NCBI GenBank assembly: GCA_965368975.1
Contig: CBDUPA010000022.1
Coordinates: 1-64,000, forward strand
Reading direction: 5' to 3'
DNA length: 64,000 nucleotides
Origin: an uncultured bacterium
GTDB lineage: Bacteria; Acidobacteriota; Thermoanaerobaculia; Multivoradales; JAHZIX01
Within the stretch, counting starts at the first letter, position 1; every line of letters begins with the position of its first letter. The position numbers and the translations under genes are program-made. This document shows, piece after piece, positions 14,062 through 29,509 of this stretch. A model generated the notes under the pieces. That model was not told the DNA's origin, ran no database searches, and saw only the letters and a list, made by a program, of their open reading frames with translations.

Positions 14062-14308
14062 CTTTCGTGTGCTGCGTCTTCCCGGCACGGTGCTCGCAAA
14101 TGCCACCTGTGTGCGGAGTCTTGGCGTGGTTGTGCCCAGACGCCGAATCCAAGCCAAAGTGGGCTTCAGTTCAAGAATTTGGATCTCTCCAAGGCGTGGA
14201 CCAAGAAATTGAATCGTAATGAGCTTTAGAAGCATACCATGTGCGCGTGGCGTTGGGGTAAGGTCTGTGCGGAGGTGTTCGATGACGTTGGGCTGTAGGA
14301 AGCGACCG

Positions 14309-15841
14309 ATGCGCGTACTGCTGTGCGGTGCTTTGCTGGTGTATGCCAGCGTGACCGCCAGCGCGGCGCAGGAGCCGCCGGCGGCGGATGTCTTCGAACC
14401 GATCCGGCAGCTGTTGTCGACAGCGGACCGGCAGACGCGCCGAGCGGCTGCCGAAGAGTTGCAGCGTGCCGGCGACCTGGCGTTGGTGCCACCGCTTGTC
14501 GACGCACTCTTCTTCTTGCCGCGTGACCGGCGGCGCGAAGCTCTGGAGGTCCTGGAGGCGCTGAGCGGGGAACGGCCGGGTGGCCGCTACATGGATTGGG
14601 TGGAAGTCGTCGGCCGGCGTCGCGACCTCGAACCGCCGCCCGGCTACGCCGCCTTCAAGCTGGAGTTGCTGCAGCGCATCGACCCGAGCTACGCCAAGAT
14701 CTTCTACCCTGGTGCACCGTTGCGTATCCGGCTGGAAGAGGTGGTGTGGGGGGGCGTGCCACTGGACGGTATCCCGACGCTGGAGCAGCCGGCCCACATT
14801 CCGGCTGCCGAGGCGGACTATCTGCGCGACGACGAGGCGGTGTTCGGTGTGGCGATCGGTGGCGAAGCGCGCGCGTATCCGCTGCGCATGCTCGACTGGC
14901 ACGAGCTGCTCAACGACGTGGTCGGTGGGGAGCCGGTGAGCTTGAGCTACTGCACGCTGTGCGGCTCGGCTGTCCTGTACTCGACGCGCACGCGCGGTGC
15001 GCCCTACACGTTCGGCACCTCGGGCCTGCTGTATCGCAGTAACAAGTTGATGTTCGATCGTCAGACCTACAGTCTGTGGAGCAACCTCACCGGCGAACCG
15101 GTCATCGGCCGGCGGGCGCGCGGCAGCGTGCGGCTGCGGCAGCTGCCGGTGACGCGCACCACCTGGGAAGCGTGGCACCAGCGCTTCCCGGACACCACGG
15201 TGTTGGCGCTCGATCGTGAGCTGGAGCGCCGGACGGGTTTTCGCTACCGTCCCGGCGCGGCTCGCCTGGCGCGTCGCGGCGTCGAGTTCCCGGTCTGGCA
15301 GCGCGACGATCGTCTGGCGCGTGAGGACGAGGTTTACACGCTGCGCCTGACACAGCTAGACGCTGCGGTCGACGGGGAGGAGTCGGTGAAGGCCTACGAG
15401 CTGGATGCTTTGCTCGAGGTGGGTGTGTTGCACGACGAGCTGGGCGGCCAGCCGCTGGTGTTGGTGGCGGACGAAGGCAGCGGTGCCGTGCGGGCCTATG
15501 CACGTGCTTCCACGGCGCAGACTTTCACGGCGCGCGCTTCGGGCTTGGAGCCGGGCTTGGAGCTGCTCGATGGCGCGGGGGCGATCTGGAGAGCGGACGA
15601 GGACGCGCTGCGCTGTGTCGAGGGATGTGCCGCGTCGACGGATGCACCGCCCGAGGACATGCTGCCCGAGGACATGCTGCCCGAGGACGCACCGTCCGTA
15701 CAACCGCGTGAACTGTCGCACGAGTTGCCGCGATTGGCTGGGCATGTCGCCTTCTGGTTCGGCTGGTACGGCTTCTATCCGCACACCGAGTTGTGGCCGG
15801 ACGCCGAGCGTCCAGACGAGGAGCATAGGATTCGCCGATGA
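14309..15841 (+). CDS. DUF3179-domain secreted protein
   Basis: Signal peptide MRVLLCGALLVYASVTASAA; WGGVPLDGIPTL, ARAYPLRMLDWHELLND, SYCTLCGSA, FGTSGLLYRSNKLMFDRQT, AFWFGWYGFYPHT. Confidence 0.8.
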   Translation: MRVLLCGALLVYASVTASAAQEPPAADVFEPIRQLLSTADRQTRRAAAEELQRAGDLALVPPLVDALFFLPRDRRREALEVLEALSGERPGGRYMDWVEVVGRRRDLEPPPGYAAFKLELLQRIDPSYAKIFYPGAPLRIRLEEVVWGGVPLDGIPTLEQPAHIPAAEADYLRDDEAVFGVAIGGEARAYPLRMLDWHELLNDVVGGEPVSLSYCTLCGSAVLYSTRTRGAPYTFGTSGLLYRSNKLMFDRQTYSLWSNLTGEPVIGRRARGSVRLRQLPVTRTTWEAWHQRFPDTTVLALDRELERRTGFRYRPGAARLARRGVEFPVWQRDDRLAREDEVYTLRLTQLDAAVDGEESVKAYELDALLEVGVLHDELGGQPLVLVADEGSGAVRAYARASTAQTFTARASGLEPGLELLDGAGAIWRADEDALRCVEGCAASTDAPPEDMLPEDMLPEDAPSVQPRELSHELPRLAGHVAFWFGWYGFYPHTELWPDAERPDEEHRIRR

Positions 15842-17130
15842 CTCGTCTGGATCGACCTTCACGCAGGCGCTTCTATGCTCTCCTTGCCCTGGCGTTGGCG
15901 GCACTTGGGTTGAGCTGGGGACTCGCGCGCTGGCCGTCCGGCAGCGAGGTGGCACCGGAGGAAGCGGGGGGTCCCCAGGGCTATTGGCTGTTCGACGGCT
16001 CCTCCGCACCGTCCCCGGATGCTTCGTCAGACGAGCTCGCGCGCTTGCTGTCCTTGCCCTACTCGGGCACCGGCGAGGCCGCGAGTGGTGATAGCGGTGT
16101 GGTCTTCCACGATGCGTCTCGTACCTGGGGGAAATACAACCTCTACAGCGCCGGGCACGGGCCGGAGGCTTTCCTGGTCGACATGGACGGCAATGTCGTG
16201 CACCGCTGGCGTTTCCCCTACGCCGCCGCCTTTCCCGAGCGCGAAGTCGACTCCTGGACCAGCTACTGGCGGCGCGTGCGCTTGTTGCCGGACGGTGGTT
16301 TGGTGGCGCTGTTCCAGAGCGGTGGTCTGATCCGAATCGACCAGCGCTCGCGCTTGCAATGGCGTCTCGACCGTGGCGTCTACAACGACGTGCGCGTCGC
16401 CGCGGATGGCTCGATCGTCACGATCACCAAGGACGCGCGGCAGCTGCCGTGGATCGACCCGCTACAGCCGGTGCTCGAAGATCAGGTCCTGGTGTTGAGC
16501 GCGGGTGGTGTGCCGCTGCGCGAGGTGTCCCTCTTGCGGGTGCTGCTCGACCATGACCCTGGCCTAGTGCGCTTCACCGGCGAGCCGGACCTGCTGCACG
16601 CCAACACCGTCGAGGTTCTAGACGTTGCTGGACCACCGCGCCGCATCCTGTTCTCGGCGCGCAACATCGATACCATCGGCGTCCTCGACCTGGAGACCCA
16701 GCGCGTCGAGTGGGCGCGGCGGGGTCCCTGGCGACGCCAGCATGATCCGCGGCCGCTAGGCTCGGGTGCGGCGAGCGAATGGGGCGATTCGGTCAACGGT
16801 CGTGTGCTGCTGTTCGACAACCAGGGTGGCTCCGACGGCCGCTCGCGGGTCATCGAATTCGATCCGGCGAGCAGTGAGATCGTCTGGACCTTCGAGCACG
16901 AGAGCTTCGACTCCTTCGAGGGCGGCGCCTGCGCGCGCTTGCCCAACGGCAATACGCTGATCAGTTCGTCGATCGAAGGCCGCGCCTTCGAAGTGACGGC
17001 GAGCGGTGAGGTGGTGTGGGAGTTCGTCAACCCGCACCGCGGCGGTCAGCGCGGCGAGTTGCTGGCGGCGCTGTGGGAGGTCGAGCGACTGGCAGCCGAG
17101 GATGTCGAGGGCTGGTTGCTACGCCAGTGA
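15838..17130 (+). CDS. Arylsulfotransferase (ASST)-family beta-propeller protein
   Basis: N-terminal membrane anchor; LVDMDGNVVHRW, DLLHANTV, QHDPR, LLFDN, RLPNGNTLI, GEVVWEF; ATGA overlap with the upstream gene. Confidence 0.75.
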   Translation: MTRLDRPSRRRFYALLALALAALGLSWGLARWPSGSEVAPEEAGGPQGYWLFDGSSAPSPDASSDELARLLSLPYSGTGEAASGDSGVVFHDASRTWGKYNLYSAGHGPEAFLVDMDGNVVHRWRFPYAAAFPEREVDSWTSYWRRVRLLPDGGLVALFQSGGLIRIDQRSRLQWRLDRGVYNDVRVAADGSIVTITKDARQLPWIDPLQPVLEDQVLVLSAGGVPLREVSLLRVLLDHDPGLVRFTGEPDLLHANTVEVLDVAGPPRRILFSARNIDTIGVLDLETQRVEWARRGPWRRQHDPRPLGSGAASEWGDSVNGRVLLFDNQGGSDGRSRVIEFDPASSEIVWTFEHESFDSFEGGACARLPNGNTLISSSIEGRAFEVTASGEVVWEFVNPHRGGQRGELLAALWEVERLAAEDVEGWLLRQ

Positions 17131-18330: not shown

Positions 18331-18869
18331 GATCGGGTCGACTCCTCGGCAGGGGGCAAAGTCTGCGCCCTCACTTTGGCGGTTTGAGCGTTGCGGAAGG
18401 TGTGCAGCTTGGCGCGTAGCTCGGGGTCTTGACGCGCCAGGATCGATACCGCCAGCAGCGCTGCATTCTTGGCGCCGGCATCGCCGATCGCCAGCGTCGC
18501 GACGGGCACGCCGGCCGGCATCTGGACGATCGACAGCAGGGAGTCGACGCCGTGGAGTGCGCGGCTCTTGACCGGCACGCCGAGCACCGGCAACAAGGTC
18601 TGGGCGGCCACCATGCCGGGCAGGTGCGCGGCGCCGCCAGCGCCGGCGATCACCACCTGGACGCCGCGCTCTTCGGCGGTTTCGGCGAACTCGGTCAACC
18701 ACTGCGGCGTCCGGTGCGCCGACACCACCAGGCATTCGTGGCCGACACCGAAGTCGTCGAGCAGCTCGTGGGCACCGCGCATGGTGTCCCAATCCGAGGT
18801 GCTGCCCATGATCACGCTGACGCTCGGTCGTGACTGCAGGGACTCTTGCGGAAGGGGCCCTTGCTTCAT
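18327..18869 (-). CDS. purE: N5-CAIR mutase
   Basis: [40 protein letters not shown]. Confidence 0.97.
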
Positions 18870-19348
18870 TCGATCTTCCTTTCCAGGTCCGGTTCCATCA
18901 CGGTGAATGTCTTGTCGACATCCGCGGCCTCACCCAGCGGCTGTCCGTCCAGTTCGATCCAGGCGTGTGCATCCAGACGCGTGGTTTGTGGCACTCTGGG
19001 CTCAGTTCCGCGCAGGTTCACCCCCAGGCGCAGCCGTGCCTCGAATCCGCGCCGTCGCAGCAGCCACCACAAGGTCATCGCGCGTGGCAGGCAGACGTAG
19101 GTTCCGGGGAGATGGGTCGCGGCCCGCTGCACCGCCAGGACTGCACCCTCGGCTACCTGACCGACGGCCTCTCGTGGTGCATCGGGGTACGGCGCGCTGA
19201 GCGCTTCCGGGACCGTCCGGCGCAGCCAGGACCAGCAGCGCCGGAAGCCGAACCATACCAGACCCCAGCGCACGAGGGGCAGTATCAGAACCGCCGCGAC
19301 CAGGGGCCGCCGCTCGTCCGGCGGCAGGCGCAGCAGCTTGCCGATCAC
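18866..19348 (-). CDS. Lasso peptide biosynthesis B2-type (transglutaminase-like) leader peptidase
   Basis: [16 protein letters not shown]...LRLGV...[10 protein letters not shown], carrying the catalytic Cys and His of this family. Confidence 0.85.
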
Positions 19349-19364: not shown

Positions 19365-19631
19365 TCATGGGGTCTCCAGCTCGATCAACTGATCGGCGGC
19401 GAGTTGGTCGAGCAAGGATCGCAGGTCGCGGCGCAGGCGCTCCGGTGCCACCTCGAATTCGTCCAGCAGCGCGGCCTGGACGGCTTCGACATCCCGCAAC
19501 TCGTCGAGCAACTGCCAGATGCGCGTGCCCACTTCGTCGAGGCCGAAGTACTTCTGGCTGCGCAGGTCGAGCAGCACAGACTCGCCGTCGAGCTCGCGGA
19601 ACAGAACTTGTTGAGAGGGGGTAGCGCGCAT
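19365..19631 (-). CDS. PqqD-family RiPP recognition element (lasso B1-type)
   Basis: About 88 aa; VLFRELDGESVLLDLRSQKYFGLDEVGTRIWQLL...EFEVAPERLRRDLRSLLDQL. Start position uncertain. Confidence 0.88.
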   Translation of the reverse strand: MRATPSQQVLFRELDGESVLLDLRSQKYFGLDEVGTRIWQLLDELRDVEAVQAALLDEFEVAPERLRRDLRSLLDQLAADQLIELETP

Positions 19632-19683
19632 CTGGATCTCCGGCGCCAGTTTAGCAGCCGGCGATGGACGATAATATGACGCC

Positions 19684-20268
19684 ATGTTCCAGATCAAAAG
19701 CCCGTCCCTCCTCCTGCTCGCCGTGACCGTGTTCGTGGGCAGCGTCGCCGTCTTGCAGTTCGGCTGCGCCACCGTGCGGGGTCCCGAACGTCTCGACGGC
19801 TATCGTCAAGCTCTCGACGCCAGCGTCGCCTCGGCTTCCGGTCACCTGGACGCCGAGGCCGCGCGCCAGCGCTTCGCTGCCTTCTATGCCGAGTTCACCC
19901 CCGAGGCCGTGCGCCGCAACGTGCCCGAGGTGTTCGCGCCGGATGCCTACCTCAACGACTACCTGCACGAAGCGCATGGCCGTGAGGCTGTCGCCGCCTA
20001 CCTGAGCCAGGTCGCGGAGGACTTCGTCGACGCGTCCTTCGTCGTCGAGGGAGTGGCGCACAACGACATCGACTACTACTTCCGCTGGACCATGTCGTTC
20101 CGCCTGCGTGGCAACGAGGACGACCCACCCCTGACCTCTCCCGGCGTCTCGCACGTGCGTTTCGACGCCGAGGGCCGCATTCTCTTCGAGGCGGATCATT
20201 GGGACCTCAATGCCGTTTACGAGCGCATCCCGGGGGTGGCGGCAGTCGTGCGCAAGCTACGTCAGTGA
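19684..20268 (+). CDS. SnoaL/NTF2-like exported protein, possibly a lipoprotein
   Basis: Hydrophobic N-terminus ending FGC; FAPDAYLND...HGREAVAAYL, GVSHVRFDAEGRI...DHWD. Confidence 0.75.
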   Translation: MFQIKSPSLLLLAVTVFVGSVAVLQFGCATVRGPERLDGYRQALDASVASASGHLDAEAARQRFAAFYAEFTPEAVRRNVPEVFAPDAYLNDYLHEAHGREAVAAYLSQVAEDFVDASFVVEGVAHNDIDYYFRWTMSFRLRGNEDDPPLTSPGVSHVRFDAEGRILFEADHWDLNAVYERIPGVAAVVRKLRQ

Positions 20269-20367: not shown

Positions 20368-20447
20368 GAATGGCAAACTCTGATCACCCAACCTGTGTCG
20401 AGTTCCACGGCTCGCCGTGTCTCGATCGCCGTCCTGGAGAGATCGCC

Positions 20448-20768
20448 ATGAGCTGGAACCAAGCCCCCTCCGTACAGCCTGAGACCCCGAACCCGGTCAT
20501 CCCCTCCTACCGCGCCGCCTACGATGGTGCCAAGACAGCCAAGCCGGAAGTGATCACCGAGGTGGCTCCGGAAGTGAAGCCGGAGATCATCACCGAGGTT
20601 GCACCCGAGGTGAAGGGCGAGATCATCACCGAGGTGGCACCGGAAGTGTCCAAGGAGATCAAGCGCAGGCCCGAAGTGATCGTCGAAGTGGCGCCCGAGC
20701 TGTCCCACGAGAAGGTCAAGAAGATCGCCAAGGAAGTGATCGTCGAGGTAGCGCCGGAGACCAAGTAA
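20448..20768 (+). CDS. Putative multi-core RiPP precursor peptide (106 aa) with five E[VI]I[TV]EVAPE repeats
   Basis: GGAGAG RBS; ~30-aa non-repetitive leader, then PEVITEVAPEV, KPEIITEVAPEV, KGEIITEVAPEV, RPEVIVEVAPEL, KEVIVEVAPETK. Repeats vary at synonymous positions. Only 4 nt separate it from the next gene. Confidence 0.75.
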   Translation: MSWNQAPSVQPETPNPVIPSYRAAYDGAKTAKPEVITEVAPEVKPEIITEVAPEVKGEIITEVAPEVSKEIKRRPEVIVEVAPELSHEKVKKIAKEVIVEVAPETK

Positions 20769-20772
20769 CTCC

Positions 20773-23700
20773 ATGGCGGGGGACCGAGAGCGGCTGCTGC
20801 GGCTCTTGCTCCGCCAGGGCATTCTCCATGCATCGCCGACGCAGCCGGTGCGTTCCCGCGACGGAACGCCGGCGCGTTGGATGCTCGATTCTCTCGGCGT
20901 CACGTTGGAGGGAGAGGGGCTGCAGCTGGCCGCGCGGTGCCTGCTGCCCCTGCTCGCTCGTTTCGAAGGCCGGCAGATCGCCACCTTTGGCACCACCGCC
21001 ATCCCGCTGGTCGCCGCCTGTGTCGCGGCCTCGGAGGGCCGCTACCACGGGTTGCTGGTGCGCAAAGAGCGTAAGCCGCACGGCTCTTCCAAGCGCATCG
21101 AGGGCCGCATCGAGCGCGACGAGCCGGTCATCCTGCTCGACGACTCGGTGAGTTCCGGCACCGCCATGACCGACGGGCGGCACCACCTGGAGAAAGCCGG
21201 CCTGTGGGTCGAGGGCGGTGTCTGCCTGGTGCGCTTCGGCTGGGACCGCGGCATCGCGCGCATGATGCAAGACGGCCTGCACATGGAAGCCGTCTTCGAC
21301 ATCTACGACGACGTCATGGCCGGCATGGACGCCGAGCCCGACCCGCTGGCCAATCCCACCAAGGTGTTGCCGGCGATTTGCTGGAGCGCCGAGTCGGCTC
21401 CTGAGGGCCTGCACCCCGCGCACCTGGCGCGCCGTGTCATGGAGCACCGCTTGCGGACCGGCGAGCTGCTACGCCCTCCCGCGACCCTCGACACCAATTA
21501 TGATTCCAGCGGTGGTGCCTACGTCAGCGTACGCGACCGCGAGCAGATCTACCAGCGCTACGGCCGCGAGGGTTTTTGGCACTTTCCTGAAGAGTTATCA
21601 GCGGCTCCGCCCAAGGACGCCATCTCCCCGGTCTTTCAAGAACTCCCCCCTTCCGCGCCGCGCGACGTCGTTCTCGCCGCGCACAAGACCCTCGCCCTGC
21701 TGCCCGAAGGCGAGGAAGGCCTGGCGACGCTCGACCGCAGCCTGCTCGCCGTCACCCTCTTCTCGGCGCTCGAGAGCTGCACCGTAGGCCAGCTCGACAA
21801 CCAGCGCTACGGCATCGTCGTGCGCAGCCGCGAGCGCACCGGCGTCATGGGCGGTGCCTTGCCTCGCATGCCCGGCCTGCGCGACAGCTGGGGCCAGTTC
21901 CAGCACGCGCGCATCAAGAACGGCAAGCTGATCTCCTTCGAGCCCTACGAAGTCCTGCGTCACGACGTCACCAAGCTCGTCGAGCCGGGCGCCCACTGGC
22001 AGCCCACCGGTGTGCCCAGGTCCGCTGAGACACCCTGGTTCGAAGACGCCGACATCGCCGGCCGCGTGGCTTTGAGGGTACGGCAAGTGGCGTTGAGCGA
22101 GATGCTCGGTGAATCGACAGCCAGCTCCGTAGAGCTGCCCAGCTTGCCCGAGACCTTCGACTCAGTGTTCGTTTCCGTCTACGTGCGCGGCCGGCTGCGC
22201 GGGTGTGTCGGTAGCTCGTGTGGGGCGGACGCGGGAGCCAGCCCGGACGAGCTGGAGGCGACGCTGCAGCAGCTCGTGCCCCTGGCCCTCGAAGACGGAC
22301 GCTTCGACGACGACCTACGTCCCGGCTCGGCGCAAGAACTCGCCGTCACCGTGTCCTTGCTGCACCAGCCCTTGACCCTCGGCGTCATGTCGCCGGCAGA
22401 CGTCATGCCACGCATCCGCCTGGGCGAACAGGCGCTCAAGGTGTCGCAGGGCACACGTGAAGGTCTGCTGCTGCCCTTCGTCGCCAGCTCGCGGCACCCG
22501 CTGGCGCACGACTTCGCCGCCGAGGTCATCGACAAAGCCGGCGTCACCCGGCCGCCCTACACCTGGCACCGTTGGGAATGCGCCACCTGGCTGGCGGACG
22601 CGTTTCACGGTGCTTCCGAAGAAAGAATGCACGGAACACCCCGCCAGCTGCGCGGGACGTTTCCACCCATTCCGCCCGGCGACGACTCGCCTGCACAGCG
22701 TGTGCAGCGTCTCACCGACCTCTACGCGCGCTACCTGCTGCGTCACCAGAAGACCGATGAGGAGGACGCCGGCAGCTTCTATTTCCGCTACAAGCCGCAT
22801 CCGAACGTGCTGGTCGACGGCATCGACGTGCCGCGTCTGGCGCACACCGCCTGGACCCTCGCGCGCGCCGCCCGCCTGCTCGATCGAGACGACCTGCGCC
22901 AGGCCACGGATCGTACCGTCGTGCACCTGCTGGCCCTGTGCCGCTGTTTCGACCCCAGCGACGATGCGCATGGCGGCTGGTGGCTCGAGCGTGAGGGCGA
23001 GCAGCCGCACGCGGCCATCGCCGAAGTCGCGTTCCTGCTGCTGGCGCTGTGCGAACGCGCCGACGATGCGGGCCAGCCCCCGGCACCGGAAGAGGTCCGC
23101 ATGGCGCCGCGCCTGGCCGGAACGCTGTGGGCGTCGATCGACCGTCTCGGCTACATCAGCACCCACCGTATCGACCACGGCGGCCCGGGCAGCCTGTCCA
23201 GGGACGACCTCGAGGCGTACCAGAACTTCTATCCCGGCCAGGCGCTGCTCGCCCTCGCCCGCGCCGCCGAACTCGAGATCCACGTACCTGACCCGCGGCG
23301 CCTTGCCGCTGCCTTCCGGCGGTACCGTCATCGCTACCGGCACCAGCACCACTTCGGCCAGGCGTCGTGGCTGGCGCAGGCCTGGGCTGCCTGGGCGCGG
23401 AGCAGTGGCGAGAACCGGGACGCCTACGCCGCCTTCGTCCACCAGATCGTCGATCATGCTCTGGAGCACCAGGTGCAAGCGCCAGAGCAGAGAGACGTCG
23501 GTGCTTTCCTCACTCCCTTGCAGCAGGGCCCCGGCTTCACCAGCGTGCTTTTCTTGGAGGTACTCGCCGCCGCCATGAGCCTGAGCCTCGAGAGCGAAGT
23601 CGACGAGCGCTACCGCCGCGCTTACCACCTCGGCGTCCGCTTTCTCGATACCTTGACGCTGCAAGAGCCCATGCTGCCATTGCTGCCGGCTCCCGAGTGG

Positions 23701-23814
23701 GCGTACGGTGGCGTGCGTCAAGATCCCTACTACGACGAGATCCGCATCGACTTCGTCAGCCACTCACTGTCCGCGCTGCTGTGGTCCCATCCCGCACCCC
23801 AGGAGTCCTCATGA
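20773..23814 (+). CDS. Multidomain protein: orotate-PRTase-like + two AMMECR1-like domains + C-terminal alpha-helical (alpha/alpha toroid-like) domain
   Basis: PyrE-like LLVRKERKPHGSSKRIEG and PRPP-binding loop VILLDDSVSSGTA. AMMECR1 motifs VFVSVYVRGRLRGCVGS, ALEDGRF, GLLLP..KAG, and a divergent copy (GGAYVSV...YGIVVRS...GGALPRMPG). C-terminal GSFYFRY, FYPGQALLAL, GGVR...IRIDFVSH. Confidence 0.75.
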   Translation: MAGDRERLLRLLLRQGILHASPTQPVRSRDGTPARWMLDSLGVTLEGEGLQLAARCLLPLLARFEGRQIATFGTTAIPLVAACVAASEGRYHGLLVRKERKPHGSSKRIEGRIERDEPVILLDDSVSSGTAMTDGRHHLEKAGLWVEGGVCLVRFGWDRGIARMMQDGLHMEAVFDIYDDVMAGMDAEPDPLANPTKVLPAICWSAESAPEGLHPAHLARRVMEHRLRTGELLRPPATLDTNYDSSGGAYVSVRDREQIYQRYGREGFWHFPEELSAAPPKDAISPVFQELPPSAPRDVVLAAHKTLALLPEGEEGLATLDRSLLAVTLFSALESCTVGQLDNQRYGIVVRSRERTGVMGGALPRMPGLRDSWGQFQHARIKNGKLISFEPYEVLRHDVTKLVEPGAHWQPTGVPRSAETPWFEDADIAGRVALRVRQVALSEMLGESTASSVELPSLPETFDSVFVSVYVRGRLRGCVGSSCGADAGASPDELEATLQQLVPLALEDGRFDDDLRPGSAQELAVTVSLLHQPLTLGVMSPADVMPRIRLGEQALKVSQGTREGLLLPFVASSRHPLAHDFAAEVIDKAGVTRPPYTWHRWECATWLADAFHGASEERMHGTPRQLRGTFPPIPPGDDSPAQRVQRLTDLYARYLLRHQKTDEEDAGSFYFRYKPHPNVLVDGIDVPRLAHTAWTLARAARLLDRDDLRQATDRTVVHLLALCRCFDPSDDAHGGWWLEREGEQPHAAIAEVAFLLLALCERADDAGQPPAPEEVRMAPRLAGTLWASIDRLGYISTHRIDHGGPGSLSRDDLEAYQNFYPGQALLALARAAELEIHVPDPRRLAAAFRRYRHRYRHQHHFGQASWLAQAWAAWARSSGENRDAYAAFVHQIVDHALEHQVQAPEQRDVGAFLTPLQQGPGFTSVLFLEVLAAAMSLSLESEVDERYRRAYHLGVRFLDTLTLQEPMLPLLPAPEWAYGGVRQDPYYDEIRIDFVSHSLSALLWSHPAPQESS

Positions 23815-25736
23815 CCGCGCCCCCCATACAGCGCCACGGGCCCCTGCTCGAACTGCGCCCGCAGGACGGCGATGCGTCGCAGCCGGATGTCGACGCCAGC
23901 TTCCCCGTTGCCCTGATCAGCATGCCCACCCTGGCGCCGCACTTCCCGAGCTTCCAGCTGGGCTTGCTCCAACCCACCCTCGAACGCGCCGGCATCGCCG
24001 TCCAGCCCTTCAGTCTCTTCCTCTACTTCGGTGCCCACATCGGCTGGTCCCTCAACGACGCCCTGTCCGCCGTGCGTCCGTGTATGGCCGGCGAGTGGAT
24101 CTGGTCCAAAGCCGCCTTCGGCGAGTTCTCGGATGCCGACGAATACCTGCAGCACTACGCCCGCAACTTCGCCCAGATCTGCCAGGGCGCCGGCTGCACC
24201 CTCGACGACCTGCACCGCGTGCGCGACGAGCAGACCTTCACCTTCCTGGACGCCATGCTCGATGCCGTCGACTGGAGCCGCTTCCAGCTGATCGGTTTCA
24301 CCGTCGTCTTCCAGCAGATGGTCGCCAGCCTCGCCTTCGCCCGCCGCCTCAAAGAGCGCCACCCTGACATTCCGATCATCTTCGGCGGGGCCACCTTCGA
24401 AGACGACATCGCCGAAGGCATCTTCGACGCCAGCCCCTGGATCGACTACATCCACTGCGGCGACGCTGACGACACCTTCCCCGAGCTGGTGCGACGCCTC
24501 AAAGCAGGTGAGTCGATGGACGGCATGACCGGCATCCGCTGGCGTGACCAGGATGGAGTGCCTCAATTCGCTGGCCGTGCCCCCAACCTGCACAATCTCG
24601 ACCAGACCCCGGTGCCGTCCTACGACGAGTACTTCTTCGCCCGCCGTCAGAGCGGCTATGACGCCTACACCCAGGCCAAGGGCTCCATGATCCCCATCGA
24701 AACCGCACGCGGCTGCTGGTGGGGCATGAAGCAGCACTGCACTTTCTGCGGCCTCAACCGCTCTGGCATGCACTTCCGCGCCAAGAGCGTCGACGGCGTG
24801 CTCGACATGCTGGCCGACCTGAGCCGCAAGTACGGCATCCTGCACTTCGACGCCATCGACAACATCATGGCCCCGGAGTACCTAGAGCAGCTCTTCGGCC
24901 AGCTCGCGGACGCTCACACCGACGTCCAGATCCACTACGAAGTGCGGCCCTACCTCAGCCGCGATCAACTGCGCGAACTCAAGCGCGGCGGCCTCTATTC
25001 AGTGCAGCCTGGCATCGAGAGCCTGAACACCCACGTGCTGAAACTGATGCGCAAGCACAGCACCGGCGTCAACAACCTCAGTTTCATGAAGTGGTGCACC
25101 TACTTCGGCATCAACAATCTCTACAACCTGCTGATGGGTTTTCCGGGCGAGACGGTCGAAGACTACGAGCAGCAGCTGGAAGTCATCGCCAAGATCCCCC
25201 ACTTCCAAGCCCCCTACGGCGTCGCCCGTGCCCGTGCCGATCGCGGCTCTCCCATGTACACCGAGCCCGACCAGCACGGCATCCTCAACCTACACCCCAG
25301 CTGGTGCTACCAGCACATCTACCCCCCGGATCGCTACGACCTGGCGAAGGTCTCGTATTACTTCGATCACGAGCTGGACGGTGAGCTGCCCAAGGAGGTC
25401 TATGAGCAGACCTTCAACGCCGTCTACGAGTGGCAAGCCCGCTGGCACTCGCGTCCGCGGCCATCGCTAACGTACTCCAAGAGCTGGAAGACCCTGGTGC
25501 TTTCCGATCAACGCGGATTGCCGGGCCTTCCCACCCGCGTCACCCTACAGAACCGCGCCGCGGACCTCTACGAGTTCTGCCATGAGCCCAAGGGGCTGGC
25601 GTCGGTGGTGCGGCACTTCGAGGGCGATGAAGCCTGGGTCCAGGCGATGCTTGCGGAGCTGTGCGGCATGGACTTGATGATCCACCTGGACGGGCGGTAT
25701 CTGAGCTTGGCGCTGCCGGAGAATCCTTATTACTGA
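23811..25736 (+). CDS. RiPP maturation B12-dependent (class B) radical SAM enzyme, probable C-methyltransferase (PoyC/TIGR03975-like)
   Basis: Start at 23811 (ATGA overlap, AGGAG RBS); VALISMP...PSFQLGLL; B12-binding LIGFTVVFQQ...IIFGGA; ETARGCWWGMKQHCTFCGLN (Cx7Cx2C); DNI; VQPGIES; YNLLMGFPGE. Confidence 0.9.
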   Translation: MTAPPIQRHGPLLELRPQDGDASQPDVDASFPVALISMPTLAPHFPSFQLGLLQPTLERAGIAVQPFSLFLYFGAHIGWSLNDALSAVRPCMAGEWIWSKAAFGEFSDADEYLQHYARNFAQICQGAGCTLDDLHRVRDEQTFTFLDAMLDAVDWSRFQLIGFTVVFQQMVASLAFARRLKERHPDIPIIFGGATFEDDIAEGIFDASPWIDYIHCGDADDTFPELVRRLKAGESMDGMTGIRWRDQDGVPQFAGRAPNLHNLDQTPVPSYDEYFFARRQSGYDAYTQAKGSMIPIETARGCWWGMKQHCTFCGLNRSGMHFRAKSVDGVLDMLADLSRKYGILHFDAIDNIMAPEYLEQLFGQLADAHTDVQIHYEVRPYLSRDQLRELKRGGLYSVQPGIESLNTHVLKLMRKHSTGVNNLSFMKWCTYFGINNLYNLLMGFPGETVEDYEQQLEVIAKIPHFQAPYGVARARADRGSPMYTEPDQHGILNLHPSWCYQHIYPPDRYDLAKVSYYFDHELDGELPKEVYEQTFNAVYEWQARWHSRPRPSLTYSKSWKTLVLSDQRGLPGLPTRVTLQNRAADLYEFCHEPKGLASVVRHFEGDEAWVQAMLAELCGMDLMIHLDGRYLSLALPENPYY

Positions 25737-25789: not shown

Positions 25790-26566
25790 TCACCTGCCTC
25801 GATTCGTGCCAGCCGGGCAACTCCGTTCCGCCAGATACCGTTCGACGAACTCGAAGTACTCCGGCGACGTGCAGGCGGCGACTTTGCGGCAGGTGGTGTC
25901 GAACTCGAGATGCTGGCTGGCGGCGAAGTCACGGAGCGTGTCGAGTGCCATCAGCATTCCGGGTAGATCTTGGGCTTTGACCGCGGCGGCCGTCAGCGCT
26001 CGTCGCAACGCGACTTCGGGTAACTCTTCGCCAGTGCGCGTGAGCCCGAAGGCATAGGCGGAGATGCGCTGAGCCAGGTGAGGGCGCTGGAGTAGGAAGC
26101 GTTCGGCGGCGTCCTGCGACTCGCGATCGGTGACCAGGTAGTGGTCCAGGAACTCGGCGAAGAGCGAATCGGGCTTCGTCGAGTCGTGAGGCTGCGATCT
26201 GTTCAGCTGACGCAGCATGCCCTGCAGTTTCGCGTCCCGAGCTTGCGGCAGGGTGCTGGGAATCGACGAGCGGTTGCGGAAGTAGGCGAAGCCGATGCCG
26301 CACGCGACGAAGCTGAGAAGGAGGGGCGCGAACCACAGGTCGTTGAGGTCTCGGTTTGTGCCCCAGACGGCGAGTGCGAACAGGAGGGGGAAGGCGAGCA
26401 GACCAGCCAGGGCGATGTTGTTGGCGCGCTGCAAGTCGCGCAGTTGTTCGGGTTGGAGGTGCTGGTTCATCAGCTCCGTGGAGGTTCGCAGGTTGTAACC
26501 GCCCAGGAGGACGAGTGCCGCGTAGACAACATAAGCTCCTATTCCGTACAGCCAGCCTTCCATCAT
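25790..26566 (-). CDS. Hypothetical membrane protein
   Basis: Three hydrophobic segments in the N-terminal half, then a soluble domain; abuts the upstream gene's stop codon. Confidence 0.6.
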   Translation of the reverse strand: MMEGWLYGIGAYVVYAALVLLGGYNLRTSTELMNQHLQPEQLRDLQRANNIALAGLLAFPLLFALAVWGTNRDLNDLWFAPLLLSFVACGIGFAYFRNRSSIPSTLPQARDAKLQGMLRQLNRSQPHDSTKPDSLFAEFLDHYLVTDRESQDAAERFLLQRPHLAQRISAYAFGLTRTGEELPEVALRRALTAAAVKAQDLPGMLMALDTLRDFAASQHLEFDTTCRKVAACTSPEYFEFVERYLAERSCPAGTNRGR

Positions 26567-29434
26567 CTAGTCTCCTGTTCGTAGCACGCGGGCCAGACCG
26601 CATCGCTCGTAGGCCCCGAAACCGAACGCCAGTCCCTGGAACATCTGGTCGGCACCCTTCCACCAACCGGACGCGTTGCCCAGGTAGTCGGCCCACCAGC
26701 CGGCCAGGCTGGGATTATCGAAGGCGGCGCGGCCGAGGGTGCACAGGTCGATGGCTGGAGTGGCAGTGGGGTCCAGCTCGTGGGCTTGCAGCAGCCAGGC
26801 GATCGTGTGGGGACGGTTGGGGCCGAGGATGCTGAGACCATCGCCGTTGTCGAACCAGGTACAGCTGTTCACCTGCGTTCCACCCCCGGTCAGACTACAG
26901 CTCATGAGCGCCGCCCAGTCGGCATTGACGTCGATGGCGCCGCCGGGACCTTGCATCATGCCCTGCTGGTAATAGACCAACGGCGCTTCGATCAGCGACC
27001 GTTGTAGGCCGCCGAAATCCCCGTAGTTGCGCAGCATGCGGTGGAAGAAGAGGAAGTGCATGGCGTTCTGCATGAACTGCTGGGGCTGGTCGCAGGTGTT
27101 GGCGTTGGGAATGTCGCCCTGGCAGAGTAGTCCGGCACGCAGGTTGTCTTGCCCTAGCTCAGCGAGAATCTCTTGCAGACGATCGTGGCAGGCTTGGCCC
27201 GCCGCGCCGGGGACGAACTCGGCACAGTTGGCCAGCATCTCGAAGTGCTGGATCACCTGACGCGTGATGTCGACCTGATCGACGAACGCCTCGCGCAAGC
27301 CTTGCTGAGCTTGCGGCAGGCTGTAGCGATTGGTCATGGTGATGCCAGCTTGACGGAACCGGTCGCGCAGCGCGGGACTGGGGCGCAGCAGGTAGGCGAG
27401 TTGCAGGCCTTGGTTGTAGCTGTAGTCGTCCGAGCCGAAGGCGCTGCGGTGCCACTGACCCTCGCCGCTGCCACCGGAGGTCACCGCGACGCCGGCGCGG
27501 TTGCCGTGACTCTGGTTGCCGATGTTGAGATAGGCGGTGTGCGTTTGCAGCCAGCTCTGCGGCAAGGCGAAATCCCAGGCCCAGCGTGGGTGGCCGCTGC
27601 GCAGGAACTCGAGCAACTCGGTGCCGCTGGGATTCCAGTAGTTCATCGCGCCGCTGTTGCTCGCCGGGTCGGGATTGTCGATCAGCCACAGGTCGCGCTG
27701 CACGTCGGGCCACAGCTGCGAGCCGAAGGTCTTGGCACGGTGCCACTGTCCGTTCGGGGCGGCGCCGACGGTCTGCCCGTGCAGCTCGCCGAGCAGCTGG
27801 AGGTAGGTGGTCTCGGTGGCGGACGGCGTGCCGGTACCGGCGCCCAACGTGGGCAGGACGCTGGCGCGGTCGAAGCGACTGCGGTAGGTGCGCACCAGCA
27901 GACCGCGTTCGAGTTCGTCGACAGCCTCGGTGCGCAGCGCCTCGACGTCCGCAATCGCGTTCGCGAAAGGGCCTCCGGAGGGGCCGGGTAGCAGGCTCAG
28001 GCGGGCTTGATTCCACAGGCCCTTGCCTTCGCCGACGACCAGGCTCTCGCTGATCACGCGCAGCGACAGCGTCGAGCCCTGGGCCACGATCGCTTGTGGC
28101 TCTCGGTAGCGCATCCAGGCGAGGTTGAGCGCGGCGAGTAGGTGGTTGCCGCCCAGGGGGCCAGCAGTCTGACCCTGGATCGCCAGCACCGGGCGATCGA
28201 AAGCCTGCGCGGTCTGCTGGTCGACGCTGTTCAGGCGGATGCGCGCGCGACGCTGCCACGGCGAGCCGGTGCCCTTGCGCTGCTCGACGTCCACGGTGCC
28301 GGCACCGAAAGTCGTGACCGCACCGGCGCCGCCGGCATGGGCGCTGACCTGGGTCCAGCCGAGGGGCAACTCCCAGGACGCTCGGTGCACGGTGACGGCG
28401 TCGTCGGTCCAGGGACCGGAGTTGGCGTCGCTACACTCGTTGCGCAGGTGGAATTCCAGCAGCACGTGACGGCTGGCGCGCTGGAAGGTGGCGACGAGGG
28501 TGTAGCCGAAGCGTTCGTAGTCGGTGGGGCCGCTGGTGCACAGGCTGGCGCCGGTACCGGAGGAGAAGTGCCCGTCGAGTGCCACGGTCACCTTGGCCGG
28601 GCCGTTCTCCAGGATGCGGAAGCTGCCGGCATCGACGGTCACCTGCCCGGGCGTCGCGGTGCTCAGGGTCAGCGGAGTTCCACCGTTGTCGAAACTCAGG
28701 TACGGACCGGCGCCGGCGACATGACTGTAGACCGGAATGCGCGTGGCGCTGTCGATGTCGTTGGGGTTGACGCCGATGGCGTGGAACAGGGCGGGATTGG
28801 CGGCATCCAGTTCGAAGGTCGCCAGGCCGGTGTCGGCCATAAAGCGGCTCGTTGCCGGAACCGGCGTGATGCTGGCGGCGAAAGGCGTCGCGCTCGAAGC
28901 GGGTGTTTCCATGCGCCGCAGGGCGACTCGCACGAACGCCGGATTGTTCGCACTACCGGCACCGACGTGTGCGGGGAAGACCACCTGTAGCCAACGGATT
29001 GGCAAGCTGGTGTCGTCCACCGGACCGCCCCAGCGCGCAAGAACGTCGAATTGCGCCTCGAGGCGGCGTTGACCGCTGCCGGCGACGATCAAGGCGTCCG
29101 TCGAGGTCAGCCCCAGGTCGCGGGCGATCGGGATCGCCGACCAGGCGAGTTCACGACCGCGCGCTCGCGGCCTGTCGTTGAACACTTCCAGGCAGGCCAG
29201 CTCCTGGAACGAGCCGGCCGGCACCGCGCCCGGACTGCCGTCCAGGGCGCTGGTGATCACGGGGCCTTCGAGGCAACTGGCGCCGAGGCCGAAGACGCGC
29301 TGGAAGTCGCCGGTCTCACCGGTCTCGAAGCCGGTGATGTTGAGGGCTTGGCTTTGGCCGGCACACGGTGGCGGAGTCCAGCAGAGCGCCAGCGAAGCCG
29401 CCAGCGCAACGAGGTGGGCAATTCTGCACTTCAT
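26567..29434 (-). CDS. Large secreted protein, possibly PcRGLX/YetA-like polysaccharide lyase or hydrolase
   Basis: Signal peptide MKCRIAHLVALAASLALCW; AQFDVLARWGG...IRWLQV; ILENGPAKVTV; helical C-terminal part. Family assignment is tentative. Confidence 0.55.
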   Translation of the reverse strand: MKCRIAHLVALAASLALCWTPPPCAGQSQALNITGFETGETGDFQRVFGLGASCLEGPVITSALDGSPGAVPAGSFQELACLEVFNDRPRARGRELAWSAIPIARDLGLTSTDALIVAGSGQRRLEAQFDVLARWGGPVDDTSLPIRWLQVVFPAHVGAGSANNPAFVRVALRRMETPASSATPFAASITPVPATSRFMADTGLATFELDAANPALFHAIGVNPNDIDSATRIPVYSHVAGAGPYLSFDNGGTPLTLSTATPGQVTVDAGSFRILENGPAKVTVALDGHFSSGTGASLCTSGPTDYERFGYTLVATFQRASRHVLLEFHLRNECSDANSGPWTDDAVTVHRASWELPLGWTQVSAHAGGAGAVTTFGAGTVDVEQRKGTGSPWQRRARIRLNSVDQQTAQAFDRPVLAIQGQTAGPLGGNHLLAALNLAWMRYREPQAIVAQGSTLSLRVISESLVVGEGKGLWNQARLSLLPGPSGGPFANAIADVEALRTEAVDELERGLLVRTYRSRFDRASVLPTLGAGTGTPSATETTYLQLLGELHGQTVGAAPNGQWHRAKTFGSQLWPDVQRDLWLIDNPDPASNSGAMNYWNPSGTELLEFLRSGHPRWAWDFALPQSWLQTHTAYLNIGNQSHGNRAGVAVTSGGSGEGQWHRSAFGSDDYSYNQGLQLAYLLRPSPALRDRFRQAGITMTNRYSLPQAQQGLREAFVDQVDITRQVIQHFEMLANCAEFVPGAAGQACHDRLQEILAELGQDNLRAGLLCQGDIPNANTCDQPQQFMQNAMHFLFFHRMLRNYGDFGGLQRSLIEAPLVYYQQGMMQGPGGAIDVNADWAALMSCSLTGGGTQVNSCTWFDNGDGLSILGPNRPHTIAWLLQAHELDPTATPAIDLCTLGRAAFDNPSLAGWWADYLGNASGWWKGADQMFQGLAFGFGAYERCGLARVLRTGD

Positions 29435-29509
29435 GGGTTCTCCCTGGGAACGAAGGCAAACTGTAGGAGCTTCTGTACTGCAGTTCGCGCTTACGCGCAC
29501 GGGTTCGAC

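Follow-up and report, generated by a model that had tools for sequence, protein, structure and literature searches.

Described systems closest to the locus

A ribosomal peptide modified by a cobalamin (B12)-dependent radical S-adenosylmethionine (SAM) methyltransferase is already known, the nearest characterised system to the one described here being that of clavusporin, encoded by the mpc genes (MpcA, the peptide; MpcB; MpcC). The clavusporin report (PMC10849626) describes the CX7CX2C B12 radical SAM enzyme MpcB as β-methylating Pro, Val, Ile and Thr of the ribosomal peptide, and as doing so only together with its non-radical-SAM partner MpcC (DUF5825), and mentions mpc clusters from Actinobacteria only. 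Here we describe a gene for a repeat peptide (20448..20768, forward strand) and the two enzyme genes that follow it in a 64-kb window (the whole stretch of DNA analysed, 64,000 nucleotides of contig CBDUPA010000022.1 from an uncultured acidobacterium), for which a multi-site substrate peptide, akin to the peptides made on the ribosome and then altered after translation (RiPPs), is the best reading. Like clavusporin, the locus combines a Val/Ile/Thr/Pro-rich ribosomal peptide with a CX7CX2C B12 radical SAM enzyme and an adjacent gene for a non-radical-SAM partner. Unlike clavusporin, the partner is a fusion of an orotate phosphoribosyltransferase (OPRT)-like domain, two AMMECR1 units and a barrel, with no DUF5825 match; the peptide is an acidic repeat with 5-21 candidate sites, as against one hydrophobic 13-mer core in mpc; and the system is found mainly in Acidobacteriota, together with four other phylum labels, as against Actinobacteria only for the reported mpc clusters. 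Clavusporin is also accompanied by an S9 peptidase and a major facilitator superfamily (MFS) transporter, whereas no such Pfam match was obtained in the fusion enzyme or in the neighbouring open reading frames (ORFs) of the window. The candidate substrate family is new and the partner enzyme unprecedented, and in the full-text literature, subscription-only papers and supplements aside, neither the peptide motif nor the operon was found described, nor was any RiPP or other biosynthetic cluster containing an AMMECR1 enzyme.

A second comparison is with the C-methylation of proteusins, as in polytheonamide (PoyB/PoyC), since the window radical SAM enzyme likewise belongs to TIGR03975 and some related loci carry two or three paralogues of it. 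Polytheonamide biosynthesis uses multiple methyltransferases, and the associations of the TIGR03975 family include nitrile-hydratase-like and Nif11-like leaders. Unlike in proteusins, no leader of either kind was seen here, no NCBIfam model matched the peptide, and Pfam scans of the window ORFs placed neither an epimerase nor a dehydratase in the operon; to our knowledge, a phosphoribosyltransferase (PRTase)-AMMECR1 fusion enzyme is not part of proteusin clusters either.

The AmmeMemoRadiSam association (AMMECR1-type protein A, Memo-type protein B and a radical SAM protein), like this locus, couples a radical SAM protein genetically to an AMMECR1 domain that carries the RGChG and DxR-aromatic motifs, and the locus echoes the gene neighbourhood given in the AMMECR1 fold analysis (PMC2034487). 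The window system differs in that its score against TIGR04335 (protein A) is 60.3 bits, under the cut-off of 99, in that no Memo family member occurs among the 35 window ORFs scanned against Pfam, in that its radical SAM enzyme is a B12-type methyltransferase and not activase-like, and in that its AMMECR1 unit occurs twice, in one protein with a PRTase and a barrel, with a candidate peptide substrate encoded alongside. AMMECR1 is conserved from archaea to humans, and we know of no reaction assigned to it since the 2007 fold analysis. With PyrE, finally, the fusion enzyme shares the OPRT fold, the acidic phosphoribosyl pyrophosphate (PRPP) loop and a retained RKE-K-HG-type loop, but it falls below the equivalog cut-off, the domain is fused into a 1013-aa protein, and its gene lies in a putative peptide-modification operon.

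The three-gene operon of the window

The features of the operon, in window coordinates, are as follows.

20448..20768 (+): repeat-peptide gene, 106 aa, stop included, first in the operon (ORF list; homologous ORFs beside the same enzymes)
20436..20441 (+): Shine-Dalgarno-like GGAGAG, 6 nt ahead of the ATG at 20448 (read from the sequence)
20448..20546 (+): N-terminal non-repeat segment, 33 aa, with YRAAYDG (sequence)
20547..20573 (+): repeat unit 1, EVITEVAPE (motif match; Tandem Repeats Finder period 36)
20583..20609 (+): repeat unit 2, EIITEVAPE (motif match)
20619..20645 (+): repeat unit 3, EIITEVAPE (motif match)
20673..20699 (+): repeat unit 4, EVIVEVAPE, behind the spacer SKEIKRRP (motif match)
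20733..20759 (+): repeat unit 5, EVIVEVAPE, behind the spacer SHEKVKKIAK (motif match)
20773..23814 (+): fusion enzyme, 1013 aa (ORF; AlphaFold model; at least 827 clusters)
20773..21327 (+): OPRT-like domain, aa 1-185, PRPP loop kept (Foldseek; TIGR00336 sub-threshold)
21340..22062 (+): first, degenerate AMMECR1-like unit lacking the Cys motif, aa ~190-430 (weak Pfam match; match of the L080 homologue)
22090..22602 (+): canonical AMMECR1 unit carrying RGCVG and DGRF, aa ~440-610 (Pfam PF01871; Foldseek)
22630..23811 (+): (alpha/alpha)6 barrel, aa 620-1013 (AlphaFold domain model; VIA-align; Foldseek)
23811..25736 (+): B12-binding radical SAM C-methyltransferase, 641 aa (TIGR03975; Pfam B12-binding and Radical_SAM)

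The peptide runs MSWNQ...APETK, from the ATG at 20448 to the stop at 20766-20768, as given by the sequence and the ORF list. An earlier note on this DNA had described five E[VI]I[TV]EVAPE units, three of them in tandem steps of 12 aa and two behind K/R spacers, with an EVAPE core that stays invariant whilst its codons differ and with cores free of Cys and aromatic residues, and each of these observations was confirmed. Tandem Repeats Finder reports units 1-3 as a 36-bp tandem array (period 36, 3.0 copies, 81% matches, score 146), and units 4 and 5 follow the K/R-rich spacers V-SKEIKRRP and L-SHEKVKKIAK, respectively. Across the five units the EVAPE codons vary at Ala (GCT/GCA/GCA/GCG/GCG), Pro (CCG/CCC/CCG/CCC/CCG) and the final Glu (GAA/GAG/GAA/GAG/GAG), and the repeat region contains neither Cys nor an aromatic residue, W3, Y21 and Y25 all lying within the N-terminal 33 residues. 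The nine-residue motif occurs five times in the six-frame translation of the window, every time within this ORF. No second relative of the peptide was found in the 7.1-Mb genome (next-best match E 0.17), no Pfam or NCBIfam model matched it above cut-off, and a search of the ESM Atlas gave no usable match; YRAAYG recurs in one related peptide (locus L045). An alternative in-frame ATG at 20370 would lengthen the product to 132 aa (ORF list), and no Shine-Dalgarno-like motif was seen before it on reading the sequence.

The genes follow in the order peptide, fusion enzyme, radical SAM enzyme, with 4 nt between the peptide stop and the fusion ATG (20773) and with the fusion TGA overlapping the radical SAM ATG at 23811 (ATGA), and so form a tightly coupled three-gene operon. 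Between 19600 and 26000 no promoter-like site was called, and a single terminator-like site came up, within the fusion gene and on the minus strand, fewer than shuffled sequence gave; the GC profile, as we read it, stays between 0.61 and 0.69 over 14-32 kb with no island-like break. The radical SAM enzyme matches TIGR03975 ('RiPP maturation radical SAM C-methyltransferase') at 543.7 bits against a cut-off of 281.85, over profile positions 1-606, as well as PF02310 (33.5 bits, cut-off 32.1) and PF04055 (48.5 bits), and its Cys triad, CWWGMKQHCTFC, is of the CX7CX2C form. A sequence search of the PDB with this enzyme returned nothing. It is the sole TIGR03975 member above cut-off in the genome, so that a single repeat peptide stands one-to-one with a single such enzyme. 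A known defence system was also considered for the locus and dropped because PADLOC assigned 0 families to 7 of its proteins.

The architecture of the fusion enzyme was derived from an AlphaFold (AF2) model built on 30 homologues (mean predicted local distance difference test score, pLDDT, 90.7; predicted TM-score 0.90), residue conservation being counted on 30 sequences, and the model, taken with the fold and profile searches, indicates four parts: the OPRT-like domain, two AMMECR1 units and an (alpha/alpha)6 barrel. In Foldseek the first of these superposes on OPRT of M. tuberculosis with a TM-score, normalised to the target, of 0.89-0.91 and a root-mean-square deviation (rmsd) of 1.7-2.3 Å (0.91 and 1.7 Å for 5hki_B), and it scores 50.6 bits against TIGR00336, the pyrE equivalog, under the cut-off of 106.8. 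Its PRPP loop is kept across the homologues (D123 in 29/30, D124 in 30/30, S125 in 28/30 and G129 in 29/30), as is, in the same alignment, the RKE-K-HG-type stretch, which we take to be the flexible loop of OPRT. The first AMMECR1-like unit, searched as a piece alone, matches the Pfam AMMECR1 model below cut-off (E 0.0039); in the L080 homologue, positions 2-167 of the profile clearly match residues 203-372, and R265 and G267 are each present in all 30 homologues. The second, canonical unit gives the only above-threshold Pfam match of the whole enzyme (PF01871, 57.8 bits, cut-off 25, residues 458-599) and matches 1zq7, 1wsc and 1vaj in Foldseek. By count on the translation, RGCVG lies at residues 476-480 and DGRF at 508-511, corresponding to the RGChG and DxR-aromatic motifs that Balaji and Aravind's analysis (PMC2034487) proposes as the AMMECR1 active site; C478 is conserved in 24/30, D508 in 25/30 and R510 in 24/30 homologues.

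The barrel, modelled at pLDDT 90.7, aligns in VIA-align with cellobiose 2-epimerase (4z4j; Z 29.3, rmsd 3.0 Å over 332 residues) and with single-domain terpene cyclases and GH76 enzymes (Z 25-26), at a sequence identity of only 8-17%. It has no Pfam match and no PDB sequence match at E<=0.01 (best E 0.056), and the model places it in the (alpha/alpha)6 fold shared by AGE epimerases, class II terpene cyclases and GH76, an assignment at the level of the fold only. In a library clustered at 50% identity, 179 representatives match the fusion enzyme at E<=1e-30, at 90% identity there are at least 827 clusters (E<=1e-30), and its homologues are named in their sources, where a name is given, 'AMMECR1 domain-containing protein', 'orotate phosphoribosyltransferase', 'TIGR00296 family' or 'hypothetical protein'.

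Conservation of the triad and of the motif

Related loci were collected from one genome per species using a 12-sequence alignment of the fusion enzyme as the query, and the best 80 of 140 relatives were analysed; the same locus scan with the fusion enzyme as a single-protein query recovered no relative. By phylum label the 80 loci comprise 65 Acidobacteriota, 8 Actinomycetota, 4 Myxococcota/delta-proteobacteria, 2 Thiotrichaceae and 1 Omnitrophota. A same-strand, adjacent radical SAM gene is present in 72/80, 59 in the order radical SAM-fusion and 13 in the order fusion-radical SAM seen in the window. A same-strand repeat ORF is present in 67/80, upstream of the operon in 57 and downstream in 10, the latter being of a Terriglobia/Angelobacter type with ARPIVEV[VS][AP][ED] units set apart by spacers of ~25-30 aa; 12 of the 13 loci without such an ORF have less than 330 bp of flank on the expected side (contig end). 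The triad holds over five phylum labels and three gene orders. Amongst 60 relatives of the genome only one (G020, locus L029) carries a full-length fusion homologue, at 57% identity, and there a 244-aa ORF with 14 strict-regex repeat matches precedes the fusion gene and two TIGR03975 genes follow it. Three metagenomic peptides of 115-150 aa carry the same PE[VTI][VI]TE[VI]APE repeats.

The number of TIGR03975-like matches around the fusion enzyme varies, with three in L073 and L092 and two in L017, L029, L030, L031, L082, L088 and L095, that is, in several Terriglobia/Angelobacter loci and in G020. Two loci from Thiotrichaceae/Thiolinea, L042 and L101, carry a two-gene unit of repeat ORF plus fusion enzyme, with no radical SAM gene in the downstream flank of 5 kb (L042) or 2.8 kb (L101) and with unrelated neighbours (AcrB, cbb3 oxidase). 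The same pair occurs in L028, also Thiotrichaceae/Thiolinea, where the contig ends 3 bp past the fusion match, so that the downstream side cannot be judged; the repeat ORFs of all three loci are of the PE[VI][KR] type, and their N-terminal region is rich in Gly and Gln. Taken together, the loci define a widespread three-gene system that has no name, shared with many other bacteria of soil, in which the candidate substrate is obvious from the genome and which should therefore be directly reconstitutable; two of the carriers among the 80 loci are cultured (Blastococcus deserti CGMCC 1.15935 and Mycobacterium sp. OAS707), making genetics possible.

These loci also bear on the coding strand. The antisense frame of the window gene is likewise open (20519-20833, minus strand) and has its third codon positions in common with the forward frame, so that synonymous variation alone cannot fix the coding strand, and the antisense of the repeat, reading as SGATSV-type repeats, is open too in 44/80 loci. 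Both facts would suit an ORF that is not a gene at all, whether an open frame made by a DNA repeat or the complement of a coding antisense frame, but we regard this as very improbable: a Shine-Dalgarno motif (GGAGAG) and an ATG are in place, the stop lies 4 nt short of the next gene, an antisense ORF would have its start within the fusion gene, the E[VI]AP-reading frame shares the strand of the enzymes in 67/67 related loci with such an ORF, across genomes of very different composition, and clades share non-repetitive N-termini (e.g. RPEIVL..SEINL in P0001, P0003 and L085). On these comparisons the ORF at 20448-20768 is a real, conserved gene with a genetic tie to the radical SAM and fusion enzymes. 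A repeat of this kind, free of antisense stops and with wobble positions common to both frames, is a trap for gene callers.

From 671 instances in 68 proteins the consensus of the family motif is [RE]-[PV]-[IV]-[PTV]-E-[VI]-A-P-[ED]; after E-[VI], which is fixed by the search pattern, Ala follows in 85% and Pro in 95% of instances (n=671). On these grounds selection acts on the protein motif, which upholds what the earlier note had proposed from codon differences within the one gene. The residue before the motif Glu is Pro in 68%, Thr in 17% and Val in 11% across the family, which weakens the suggestion in that note of Thr as an acceptor, the Glu residues alone being invariant or close to it. 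Which of the three residues is found follows the clades of the enzyme tree, a pattern that fits co-adaptation of peptide and enzyme and that kinship explains equally well. Copy number ranges from 0 to 21 per protein, in ORFs of up to about 350 aa, and a distance of four residues is the one most often found between Glu residues, which fits an underlying x-E-[VI]-x tetrad. The family is rich in Pro (20.6%), Glu (14.5%), Val (9.7%), Ile (9.7%) and Ala (9.4%), and nine of its peptides searched against Pfam and NCBIfam matched no model at cut-off. The part between the candidate Met and the first motif is short (median 15-19 residues, 62 proteins), and in some members units abut without a basic residue between them, e.g. 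EVITEVAPEVITEVAPE in L067. Many Pyrinomonadaceae peptides (e.g. L056, L058 and L063) end in a Lys-rich tail plus Tyr (-KKY, -KKKY, -KTY), unlike the window peptide, which ends in -APETK.

In the reverse direction, from motif to enzymes, the species genomes were searched with a degenerate DNA pattern that matches two E[VI]AP[ED] units close together, and 80 loci among the matches listed were analysed. The earlier note had held that a repeat family unlinked to these enzymes would speak against its reading. With at least three copies of the extended motif [IV][PTV]E[VI]AP[ED], the enzymes lie within 2 kb in 9/10 loci among the matches listed. As a marker this motif is incomplete, at least three copies being present in only 46/67 family ORFs. 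The EVAPE pentamer by itself is non-specific and was discarded as a marker of the family, its enzyme-free loci being unrelated acidic linkers such as (PDEVA)n and (EEVAP)n. A locus scan with the peptide itself (non-motif words) gave 4 loci, of which L102, a 1136-aa acidic repeat protein, and L103, an IF-2 N-terminus, are alike in composition only.

P/E/V-rich repeats occur as linkers in unrelated proteins (L103 IF-2, the 1136-aa L102 protein, (PDEVA)n), OPRT-type domains normally act on small heterocycles, and one locus (L080) has the enzyme without a repeat ORF. Together with the prediction, in PMC2034487, that AMMECR1 acts on RNA bases, these points would suit a repeat protein that is an acidic, proline-rich spacer, scaffold or regulator and not a substrate, the true substrate of the enzymes then being a small molecule or nucleic acid. 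We consider this distinctly unlikely, as TIGR03975 is curated as a RiPP-maturation C-methyltransferase family and the window enzyme exceeds its cut-off by a wide margin, no neighbour but the repeat ORF is constant over the five phylum labels and three gene orders, a defined motif of 7-9 residues is conserved beyond mere composition, and the two-gene module of peptide and fusion enzyme persists among otherwise unrelated neighbours.

Proposed chemistry and neighbouring genes

We estimate the probability that the repeat peptide is the ribosomally made substrate of both the fusion enzyme and the radical SAM enzyme at about 0.65, judging from sequence. Each [IV][TPV]-E-[VI]-A-P-[ED] unit would then be both a recognition element and a modification site, and the enzymes would work iteratively along the chain rather than via a classical leader; that the repeat itself is recognised is suggested by the lack of a common N-terminal motif, the short N-termini, copy numbers of 0-21 and the almost pure (PEIR)n ORF of L033. 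The TIGR03975 enzyme would add C-methyl groups to unactivated side-chain carbons of the Val and Ile (and Thr and Pro) of the unit, residues which by analogy with clavusporin are reasonable methylation targets. The fusion enzyme would be the primary partner of the peptide, binding the acidic repeat, and would either present it to the radical SAM enzyme, as MpcC does for MpcB, or add a second, PRPP-dependent modification by way of its PRPP loop, AMMECR1 cysteine and barrel. The end product would be a multiply modified polypeptide or its fragments.

A more specific version, which we put forward tentatively and think less probable than not by some way, is that the OPRT-AMMECR1 module is a new peptide-modifying enzyme, in which PRPP would serve to phosphoribosylate or otherwise activate the carboxylate of the invariant Glu in E-[VI]-A-P-[ED], the AMMECR1 Cys and the sugar-enzyme-like barrel would process the adduct, and B12 radical SAM methylation would be an add-on that some lineages lack. 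With a motif-defined peptide encoded next to both a radical SAM enzyme and an AMMECR1 enzyme, what AMMECR1 does becomes open to experimental test. Were a PRPP-type transferase to act on a peptide, this would be new chemistry for ribosomal peptides, and were Glu phosphoribosylation or activation to be correct, it would provide the first substrate and reaction for AMMECR1.

Several observations weigh against the peptide as a substrate of both enzymes. L080 is the only locus in which the fusion enzyme, with full flanks, has neither a repeat ORF nor a radical SAM gene, and in a Nitrosopumilaceae archaeon metagenome-assembled genome (L153) a protein of 406 aa contains PAAAEPVVEVAPE 13 times and has neither a fusion gene nor a radical SAM gene within 2 kb, the sole case among the matches listed in which extended motif and enzymes come apart. 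With at least three copies of the bare E[VI]AP[ED], 27/36 loci among the matches listed have no enzyme within 2 kb. The ORFs of L033, L042, L028 and L101 consist of PE[VI][KR] tetrads with few or no E[VI]AP units, and the AMMECR1 cysteine is absent in 6/30 aligned homologues. As the loci are largely kin, most of them from related Acidobacteriota, they do not give independent linkage counts. By eye, no N-terminal motif common to the whole family was seen in the printed sequences, only clade-level motifs; tblastn with the PqqD and B2 proteins of the window (see below) found no relative in the 80 loci, a weak test in the case of the divergent PqqD; and there was neither a protease nor a transporter among the recurrent neighbour-ORF clusters of the 80 loci, as named by Pfam or by eye. 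With no common leader, no PqqD relative and no recurrent protease or transporter, the system falls short of several usual RiPP hallmarks.

The same absences bear on a classical multi-core RiPP precursor, in which a leader would direct the enzymes and five cores would be cut at Lys/Arg and exported as small methylated peptides, much as the earlier note had proposed. In its favour, the window peptide starts with 33 aa of non-repeat sequence and has spacers rich in K/R, cleavages after Arg set clavusporin free according to its report (PMC10849626), and two genes of RiPP character lie divergently 700-1500 bp upstream of the peptide gene.

19365-19772 (-): PqqD-family chaperone, divergent (NCBIfam lasso_PqqD, 55.9 bits, cut-off 80)
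18866-19348 (-): lasso-type B2 peptidase, transglutaminase-like (NCBIfam lasso_biosyn_B2, 74.9 bits, cut-off 33)

An OPT oligopeptide transporter, too, is encoded ~5 kb downstream of the operon. Nevertheless, we think it rather unlikely that the peptide is matured in this way: the N-terminus is short and without a motif common to the family, the 80 loci gave no relative in tblastn searches with PqqD, B2, a SnoaL lipoprotein and both convergent ORFs downstream, the recurrent neighbour clusters that were named include neither a peptidase nor a transporter, units abut without a basic residue in some members, and the copy number rises to 21. What stands of the 'leader plus cores' proposal is a conserved small gene with repeats beside the enzymes; no common leader, transporter or protease was found and some lineages are without the radical SAM enzyme, so that the whole is only partly supported. 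The same neighbour clusters and the abutting units of L067 go against Lys/Arg as cleavage sites in the family. With the peptide as an iteratively modified substrate, cleavage at basic spacers is possible but not indicated, and for the window peptide it is possible without support from the family.

The PqqD/B2 genes, directly upstream of purE/purK, make up an orphan B1/B2 pair that lies divergently to the operon of the repeat peptide. It could serve as a leader peptidase here, but its membership in the peptide system is doubtful. A lasso-peptide reading of the pair was rejected, as B1-like and B2 proteins are present in the window with no asparagine-synthetase-like cyclase among the window ORFs scanned, and as the pair is not conserved with the system.

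Recurrent extra neighbours of the related loci are clade-specific. Just upstream of the repeat ORF, and on its strand, 26/35 loci of the P-type (Pro before Glu, IPEVAPE; within L019-L093, mostly Pyrinomonadaceae) and 0/24 others carry a gene for a PF13640 2-oxoglutarate-Fe(II) oxygenase, which may provide an extra hydroxylation step or reflect clade synteny only. A carbamoyltransferase is found in 17 loci, often further upstream, and a short-chain dehydrogenase/reductase in 19, often downstream.

Elsewhere in the window, the two convergent ORFs at 25790-29500 (minus strand) encode proteins of 258 aa, membrane-like by eye, and 977 aa, with no Pfam, NCBIfam or PADLOC match. Upstream of purK, at 14219-17130 (forward strand), lie genes for a DUF3179 protein and an arylsulfotransferase-like protein (PF14269) with a 4-nt overlap. 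Positions 1-8583 (forward strand) are occupied by a large non-ribosomal peptide synthetase ORF, open at the window start, with three AMP-binding, two condensation and three PP-binding stretches.

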